From a virus (lineage: Duplodnaviria; Heunggongvirae; Uroviricota; Caudoviricetes), in the IMG/VR virus record IMGVR_UViG_2541047166_000019: DNA of 6,379 nt. The stretch is one strand, 5' to 3'. The position numbers and the translations under genes were made by a program. Of this stretch, positions 5,568 to 5,591 are shown piece after piece (the stretch's first letter is position 1; each line of letters starts with the position of its first letter). A model generated the notes under the pieces. It searched no databases, was not told the DNA's origin, and saw only the letters and a list, made by a program, of their open reading frames with translations.

Positions 5568-5591
5568 CCGATATGGGAATTCCCATATCGG
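5568..5591. promoter_or_regulatory. 24-bp perfect palindrome centred on GAATTC, immediately upstream of the hok promoter
   Basis: CCGATATGGGAATTCCCATATCGG is its own reverse complement. It ends 10 bp before the proposed hok -35. No T-run follows on either strand, so a protein-binding site is more likely than a terminator. Confidence 0.35.

Follow-up and report, generated by a model that had tools for sequence, protein, structure and literature searches.

BstA is a prophage abortive-infection protein that carries a KilA-N-like domain and that is neutralised by aba, a short DNA element located in its own locus (PMC8585504). BstA variants have distinct cognate elements, those of BstA-Ec and BstA-Kp being localised only to the locus, and the aba element of phage BTP1 was mapped to 63 bp spanning the bstA start codon, with terminal CCCGCC direct repeats and no palindrome (PMC8585504). 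How BstA discriminates its own prophage from an invader was left open by Owen et al. 2021 (PMC8585504). Here, we describe a 24-bp perfect palindrome located just upstream of the toxin-antitoxin locus hok in a 6,379-nucleotide stretch of DNA (IMG/VR record IMGVR_UViG_2541047166_000019; the whole stretch is called the window below), which belongs to a PPompW-type lambdoid prophage of Escherichia coli O157:H7. Judging from sequence comparisons, this palindrome is very probably what remains of a deleted KilA-N gene of the BstA type.

Over positions 5400-6035, the window is 99.8% identical to PPompW-type phages of O157:H7. The initial annotation of this DNA had described a fully self-complementary 24-mer beside hok, and we recovered it exactly, together with two gene remnants that overlap or adjoin it:

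5568-5591: palindrome CCGATATGGGAATTCCCATATCGG, two 12-nt arms without spacer, centre GAATTC, 24 bp with zero mismatches
5558-5598, minus strand: probable remnant of a KilA-N (BstA-family) gene, about 41 nt, reading ...DMGIPISE*IQ...
5546-5560, plus strand: remnant of a hydrophobic small open reading frame (ORF) of 34 amino acids, consisting of its last codons and its TGA stop (5558-5560), from an alignment with loci L001-L004

The symmetry of CCGATATGGGAATTCCCATATCGG stops at 24 bp, T5567 and G5592 being unpaired. Chance is far exceeded as a source of such a palindrome: the 24-mer with at most 3 mismatches appeared in 0 of 200 dinucleotide-preserving shuffles, and among 300 shuffles of the window none gave a perfect zero-spacer palindrome of 24 bp, the longest having 20 bp, in a single shuffle.

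When viral contigs were scanned for the central 18-mer, more than 120 loci were found and, besides the copies located next to hok, many of these sit in long ORFs where the 18-mer encodes the D-M-G-I-P-I of the LSxDMGIPISELIQ stretch of KilA-N proteins. KilA-N genes of E. coli contain TCCGATATGGGAATTCCCATATCG, identical to positions 5567-5590 of the window, as codons S-D-M-G-I-P-I-S. In E. coli EBJ003 (locus L129) and in phages vB_EcoS-666R9 and 673R7, an intact KilA-N gene occupies the slot of the palindrome: it follows genes of the DUF1627, DUF977 and DUF551 types and lies immediately upstream of hok, on the opposite strand. The protein encoded by L129 (WP_000200358.1) is recognised by the BstA model of PADLOC (E 3.2e-21) and matches the C-terminal half of the BstA protein (ST313-td) of phage BTP1. 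A blastn comparison of the window with the L129 gene gave an alignment of 41 nt with 87.8% identity. On its left side, the window flank AACTGAATTCATTCCG agrees with the antisense flank of the gene, GATTGAATTAA(C/T)TCCG, at 12-13 of 16 bases, a score that only 1 of the 6363 16-mers of the window attains, and this flank homology exists only in the antisense orientation (about 6 of 16 in the sense one, from a base-by-base manual reading). The minus strand of the window correspondingly reads DMGIPISE*IQ for the DMGIPISELIQ of the gene.

Longer remnants were found in two other loci, L053 (ISRLTQSVKAP) and L022 (ISGLI*PVKAP), which can be followed against the ISELIQSFKGG of the gene over about 33 further nt and keep about 70 nt in total. 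The loci form a graded series, going from the intact gene (L129) to about 70 nt (L053 and L022), then to about 41 nt (L002, L119 and the window) and finally to loci from which the palindrome is gone (Evi and mEp460); the 18 nt that are absent from the L002/window type lie between CGGG and CGGGG in L022. A hidden Markov model built from KilA-N domains found no match in the window, the remnant being too short, with about 13 codons and a stop: it is a fragment, not a gene.

From these comparisons, we infer the following order of events. A KilA-N gene of the BstA family would once have separated hok from the early-region genes, with its transcription directed away from hok, and stepwise deletions or replacements would have removed the rest of it, with about 70 nt kept in L053 and L022. 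In the L002/window type, a further 18 nt would have been lost between the short repeats CGGG and CGGGG, and in Evi and mEp460 the palindrome would have been lost too. In a later step specific to the window, the paa moron would have been inserted to the left and the body of the 34-amino-acid small ORF replaced. The perfect symmetry would then not have been made by the junction, but inherited from a dyad that KilA-N genes carry at their (S)DMGIPIS codons. Such an element resembles the gene remnants found at the mosaic joints of lambdoid prophages, which are likewise short non-coding leftovers of a neighbouring accessory gene between exchangeable modules; here the modules are the small ORF or paa on one side and hok on the other, and the breakpoints vary among prophages. 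Unlike usual leftovers of this kind, this one is a perfect 24-bp palindrome, owing to the internal dyad of its parent gene, and the same core outlived several independent changes of its flanks.

The dyad of KilA-N genes was characterised using samples obtained with search patterns from which the palindrome is absent. Sampling by the QGTWVHP codons gave 69 distinct new KilA-N genes, and in 24 of them the 120 nt upstream of QGTWVHP contain a perfect palindrome of 14 nt or more (20 nt or more in 18 of these). The centres of these palindromes lie at a fixed distance from the QGTWVHP start, mostly 50 nt, and the controls gave 0/69 in the downstream 120 nt and 0/69 after shuffling. Altogether, KilA-N genes of many phyla (L376-L452 and other loci) carry a 20-26 bp dyad centred on GGAATTCC about 50 nt (centre to start) upstream of their QGTWVHP codons, in variants that encode different peptides:

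CGATATGGGAATTCCCATATCG: DMGIPIS
CGATATCGGAATTCCGATATCG: DIGIPIS
CGATGTCGGAATTCCGACATCG: DVGIPTS
CGAAACGGGAATTCCCGTTTCG: ETGIPVS
CGATGCGGGAATTCCCGCATCG: DAGIPAS
CGTTGCGGGAATTCCCGCAACG: VAGIPAT
GGAAACGGGATATCCCGTTTCC: ETGYPVS

In an alignment of 37 genes anchored only by their G-I-P codons (A3), 82.7% of the cells were paired, compared to 69.9% in shuffles (0/500 reached the observed value) and to 27-48% in slid controls, and the covariation score was 0.324 versus 0.135 in shuffles (0/500). At pair 12-21, 21 genes have G-C and the other 16 have C-G, with zero exceptions, and since column 21 corresponds to the third, synonymous position of the proline codon, this covariation takes place at the nucleotide level and not at the protein level. 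KilA-N homologues from Bacteroidota (hmmsearch E about 1e-25) have the same 22-mer at the homologous position but read in another frame, so that it encodes RYGNSHIA and not DMGIPIS:

CGATATGGG(A/G)ATTCCCATATCG: other-frame 22-mer, in the Bacteroidota genomes of L296, L306, L321, L344, L319, L369, L304 and L349

The exact 22-mer was found at 80 loci in a one-genome-per-species set of bacteria, in genomes ranging from 29% to 70% G+C that belong to Cyanobacteria, Bacteroidota, Proteobacteria, Bacillota, Dehalococcoidia and Spirochaetes. This count taken alone could be a codon coincidence, with tens of hits in a huge database, which is why the argument rests on the samples drawn without the palindrome in the pattern.

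Among the mismatches of the dyad, 7 are G.T and 14 are A.C, so that sense-strand wobble is not in excess and an mRNA hairpin is not indicated; the data are compatible with a dyad that matters at the level of the duplex, as a site for a protein would, or with a mutational process such as quasipalindrome template switching. The latter is described by the Ripley model and is reported to have been studied in E. coli by Lovett and colleagues. Concerted change of the two arms of the KilA-N dyad, with their complementarity kept, could be accounted for by this mechanism, but on its own it fails to explain the same 22-mer across phyla and in a second frame, and the relic beside hok has uncorrected one-arm mutations. 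If template switching did maintain the dyad, the latter would show, with unusual clarity for a natural case, how a mutational process can shape a conserved protein motif. Rfam at its gathering threshold found nothing at the dyad in 18 dyad-holding loci, and we found no description in the literature or in Rfam 15, either of the sequence itself or of KilA-N together with a palindrome or operator. A symmetric DNA element within the coding sequence of KilA-N genes apparently has not been described before. KilA-N is a very widespread family of viral DNA-binding domains, and the dyad is kept even when the frame changes. In the viral contig L106, the motif encoded by the dyad is tandemly duplicated within one KilA-N gene (NVDMGIPIPGISSLKSDMGIPISQLL).

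We then considered whether the palindrome is tied to the hok locus, whose features are:

5602-5630, plus strand: predicted hok promoter, -35 TTTGCT (5602-5607), 17-bp spacer, -10 TAGGAT (5625-5630)
5637-6029, plus strand: hok mRNA, with leader 5637-5786 (Rfam RF01794), mok 5727-5939 and hok 5785-5939
5996-6004 and 6008-6025, plus strand: fold-back partner and terminator in the 3' part of the hok mRNA

The hok product matches Pfam HOK_GEF (E 1.7e-21). The Rfam 'sok' model RF01794 matches the plus strand, which is the hok mRNA leader, with a start at 5637 (103.9 bits), and positions 5634-5642 pair with 5996-6004, as in the known 5'-3' fold-back of hok mRNA; these two observations together place +1 near 5637. 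The promoter hexamers were deduced from this transcript start and from their conservation in the hok loci of 933W, L002, L022 and L119, and a generic consensus promoter scan did not call them. The palindrome lies 46-69 bp upstream of +1, with its centre near -57.5, and ends 10 bp before the -35, as the initial annotation had put it, a position that is reasonable for a promoter that is itself predicted. Like the known cis elements of hok/sok (tac, fbi, ucb/dcb, sokT and mok), it accompanies a complete hok/mok/sok-type locus, which it adjoins. Unlike them, it lies upstream of the transcript start and outside the hok mRNA and the Sok RNA, the Rfam model starting only at 5637, and it is missing from most related hok loci.

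The remark that described hok/sok loci have no such site was correct: the loci of 933W (hokW), Evi, mEp460 and a P1-like phage have a near-identical -10/start-site region and no palindrome, and hokW-sokW, which has no palindrome, was shown by experiment to work as a type I toxin-antitoxin locus (PMC8621323). Homology to 933W hokW begins at position 5595 of the window, just past the palindrome, and in 933W an unrelated upstream ORF directly abuts the shared TAAAAACGGTTTGCGG stretch, the -35 stretch being also common to both. Evi and mEp460 have kept the small upstream ORF and hok, with TTGGCG as -35, and the palindrome is gone; the P1-like locus has only the start-site region in common, its upstream region being different. 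L003 and L004 (1501-1620 in each) have the small ORF, the palindrome and a promoter-like stretch down to the -10, yet no hok, as if the hok transcript unit had been swapped out precisely at its start. In both of these loci, an IbrB-like gene and then a PAPS-reductase-like gene are found on the other strand.

The spacing between the palindrome and the -35 is not constant either, with 10 bp in the window and 28 bp in L022 and L053, which have 18 extra bases. Related promoter-leader stretches of hok were detected at 8453 places in 4112 complete E. coli genomes, and about 2400 copies of the palindrome in 959 E. coli genomes (palindromic hits being tallied on both strands and part of the copies lying within KilA-N genes); most related hok loci lack it. 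In the two comparisons that the initial annotation had suggested, the palindrome is absent from related hok loci, and copies exist away from hok, including in KilA-N genes. Finally, in a sample of 114 hok-side copies that was anchored on the flanks, hence blind to the palindrome, 26 (23%) were altered in one arm (by a 1-nt deletion, A>C or C>T), always without a compensating change. From the distribution of the palindrome among these loci, we infer that it rather likely has no role for hok, which would be driven by its own promoter as in the palindrome-free loci. For the biology of hok this is deflationary, as the palindrome would then be no hidden regulatory layer of this prophage toxin-antitoxin locus.

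The left side of the palindrome helps to date it relative to the insertion of paa, the upstream neighbour:

4690-5448, plus strand: paa/adfO-type gene, periplasmic solute-binding fold (Pfam SBP_bac_11, E 5.5e-34)
5455-5468, plus strand: terminator-like hairpin and T-run after paa

This gene is annotated as Paa or adherence factor in PPompW phages of O157:H7. In L001-L004, an intact 34-amino-acid small ORF, MSDDISLAMEGALAVIAVVGVYCLVVFLMDRLGN, ends just before the palindrome. Homology between the window and these loci resumes near position 5546, which means that the small ORF still has its final codons and its stop, at 5546-5560. The boundary of the paa moron is thus located within the 3' end of the small ORF, about 20 nt further left than the palindrome, and the same relic exists in prophages without paa. 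These comparisons indicate that the remnant predates the insertion of paa, and annotators can treat the palindrome as a gene remnant older than this virulence-gene insertion. The initial proposal of a recombination or insertion scar marking the moron boundary can then be kept for the scar, which would be that of the deleted KilA-N gene, but not for the boundary.

In many lambdoid prophages, the conserved small ORF MSDDISLAMEGALAVIAVVGVYCLVVFLMDRLGN is found ahead of hok and has a strong ribosome-binding site (1411-1515 in L001 and 1403-1507 in L002; also in L119, L126 and L127), and its variants differ by conservative substitutions, which suggests that it encodes a real small membrane protein. 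Its TGA stop is held within an 8-bp palindrome, TGAATTCA, whose opposite strand corresponds to the ELIQ codons of the KilA-N remnant. Two EcoRI sites are located 18 bp apart, the left one within TGAATTCA (5558-5565) and the other at 5577-5582. A second hairpin, ATGCCGC-GCCA-GCGGCAT, lies at about 5485-5502, just past the terminator-like site of paa and within the paa insertion.

Several observations weigh against the explanation as an inert remnant of a KilA-N gene. Intermediate, longer truncations of the L129-type gene were not found in E. coli genomes, at the sensitivity of megablast, and the -35 region of the L129 hok locus is unlike that of the window; the remnant series is therefore a plausible path, not a proven lineage. 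About 77% of the hok-side copies remain perfectly palindromic over at least 22 bp, and -46 to -69 is a position from which bound proteins can influence a promoter. Many copies also stand alone. With the codon-degenerate pattern for DMGIPIS(D/E), 16 of 33 distinct contexts had no KilA-N homology within 450 nt, compared to 0 of 71 with the pattern for QGTWVHP, another conserved segment of the gene, and most of the stand-alone copies have no KilA-N-like flanks and nothing in common with KilA-N genes beyond the palindrome. For the exact 22-mer, 31 of 77 genomic contexts were stand-alone, and no KilA-N gene was found near stand-alone copies within the fetched loci. This excess means that the dyad may have its own grounds for persisting or spreading, and that the relic may keep some activity. 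Taking all this together, we still consider it probable that the palindrome both originates from a KilA-N gene and has no role for hok: in this window, it would be nothing more unusual than what is left of a gene at a mosaic joint, very likely with no effect on hok.

Some of the stand-alone copies are intergenic in phage early regions, for example between the cro-like and cII genes of L025. In L017 (6800-6950), iteron-like direct repeats (GGCAACCAATGCGCGCA) border a stand-alone palindrome to its left and right, and a gene for a 754-amino-acid AAA_25 primase/helicase-like protein lies downstream; this stretch may be an origin or a regulatory region. Other loci have non-coding arrays of 2-4 different GGAATTCC-centred palindromes, whose arms match different variants of the KilA-N dyad, for example GTGAAACGGGAATTCCCGTTTCAC, CGATATGGGAATTCCCATATCG and TCGTTGCAGGAATTCCCGCAACGA. 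A Sak4-like AAA_24 ATPase of Lacrimispora phages has a variable linker that contains DMGIPI, NTGIPVS, VVGIPTA, VAGNPVS or none of these. A clean insertion into this ATPase was rejected, as homologues with and without the motif are of equal length, and the motif instead looks like a replaced patch in the variable linker. These loci are:

L316 2527-2705: array of four palindromes
L357 4444-4496, L074 13856-13909 and L345 7883-7929: arrays of two or more palindromes
L103 3022-4167 (minus strand), L503-L506 and proteins P0001-P0120: linker variants of the Sak4-like AAA_24 ATPase

This stand-alone distribution is the main reason for keeping, as an unlikely alternative reached by analogy, that the relic is a retained functional dyad, which could act as a decoy or immunity site against KilA-N/BstA-type abortive-infection proteins and let the prophage replicate in cells that express one of them. 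BstA proteins are indeed neutralised by a short cognate DNA within their own locus (PMC8585504), and the L129 gene found in the neighbouring slot belongs to the BstA family. The covarying arms would fit diversifying cognate specificities, in parallel with the variant-specific cognate elements of aba, and both aba (PMC8585504) and the dyad are short DNA elements inside the locus of a KilA-N-type, BstA-family prophage gene. The strong over-representation of stand-alone copies, the arrays of different variants (L316, L357, L074 and L345), the presence of several variants inside the variable linker of an unrelated phage ATPase and the survival of the palindrome through several rounds of flanking deletion also point in this direction. 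Against this stand the aba of BTP1, which is not palindromic, sits at the gene start and depends on CCCGCC, and the bstA gene of BTP1, which has no dyad; unlike aba, the dyad lies at codons 58-65 of a canonical KilA-N domain that the BstA protein of BTP1 does not share. The uncompensated one-arm damage in 23% of the hok-side copies also speaks against it, L129-type genes were not seen in O157 genomes (at the sensitivity of megablast), and relics are subject to a detection bias since they were found by searching for the palindrome. That the palindrome is aba itself was rejected, as it has no CCCGCC repeats and does not overlap a start codon, and as the bstA gene of BTP1 has no comparable dyad. 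Among publications dated 2022 or later in which BstA or anti-BstA is mentioned, none supplied a further mechanism for aba.

In its general form, this analogy would make the GGAATTCC-centred KilA-N dyad a functional DNA element used for 'self' recognition by KilA-N/BstA-type proteins, with arms that set the specificity and stand-alone copies that act as decoys, which we likewise regard as doubtful. If true, the copy upstream of hok in O157:H7 prophages, the variant arrays and the ATPase-linker variants would all be decoys allowing an escape from KilA-N-based abortive infection, and there would be a concrete candidate for the means by which BstA-like defence proteins distinguish their own prophage from an invader.

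The initial annotation had also proposed that the palindrome is an operator for a dimeric regulator controlling the toxin transcript, and this proposal did not hold up well: we consider an operator or activator site for the hok promoter very unlikely. The dyad symmetry itself is there, with 12-bp half-sites (12 + 12 bp), the centre near -57.5 is a position used by class I activators, and the palindrome is conserved beside hok in several left-hand contexts. However, a fixed position and a presence across homologous promoters are both lacking: the palindrome is absent from hok loci with a near-identical -10/start-site region, including the functional hokW-sokW (PMC8621323), its spacing is shifted by 18 bp in L022 and L053, which corresponds to about 1.7 helical turns, it occurs without hok, and asymmetric mutations are tolerated. 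It also differs from the operators of the prophage repressor at 758-833. Elsewhere in the window, the only further half-site was a 10/12 match at 4159-4170, which is at chance level, and no candidate dimeric regulator was found to be encoded nearby or to co-occur with the palindrome.

It is about as improbable that the palindrome is a mobile or self-propagating element (of the REP or MITE kind, or maintained by quasipalindrome template switching) that was inserted upstream of hok and does not come from a resident gene. The exact 22-mer does occur in many unrelated contexts and phyla, it has no stop codon in any frame and, compared with Evi and mEp460, the palindrome resembles an indel of about 33 nt; yet the KilA-N homology at the hok locus runs past the palindrome, asymmetrically, and both its orientation and its position match those of the intact KilA-N gene. 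No target-site duplication or associated transposase was seen, and no inverted or direct half-site copies that could be terminal repeats of a cassette were found at the far end of the hok module. In E. coli, there are about 2-6 copies per genome, which lie in homologous prophage contexts and not at scattered intergenic sites, the context-free copies and arrays being found across phyla.

Least credible of all is an RNA hairpin on an upstream transcript, which would terminate it, stabilise the 3' end of the paa or small-ORF message, or shield hok from read-through: either strand of the palindrome as single-stranded RNA would form a stable hairpin of 10-11 bp (about -18 kcal/mol, z -4.1 to -4.6) and, in the small-ORF prophages, the palindrome comes directly after the stop codon, but the U-run (T-run) of an intrinsic terminator follows it on neither strand and it was not called in the terminator scan, paa does not need the palindrome for its termination since a terminator-like hairpin of its own follows at 5455-5468, Evi and mEp460 keep the small ORF and hok without the hairpin, and the mismatches of the KilA-N dyad (7 G.T versus 14 A.C) show no sense-strand G.U excess.

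The other features of the prophage in the window are as follows:

350-757, minus strand: cI-like repressor
758-833: the prophage's own operator region, TTAGG...CTAA-type repeats
834-1061: cro-like gene
1045-1596: YdaT-like gene
between the YdaT-like gene and the DUF1627 gene, in the listed gene order: replication genes
3249-3830: DUF1627 gene

An Rfam scan of the window with an E-value threshold detected nothing at the palindrome, and only the hok leader model and a weak isrK-like match. The latter (5948-6029; 24.9 bits compared to a gathering score of 50) overlaps the 3' fold-back and terminator of the hok mRNA and probably reflects a shared terminator-like structure. A full isrK and C4 antisense RNA pair is located about 1 kb from a stand-alone palindrome in L322, from Xenorhabdus.

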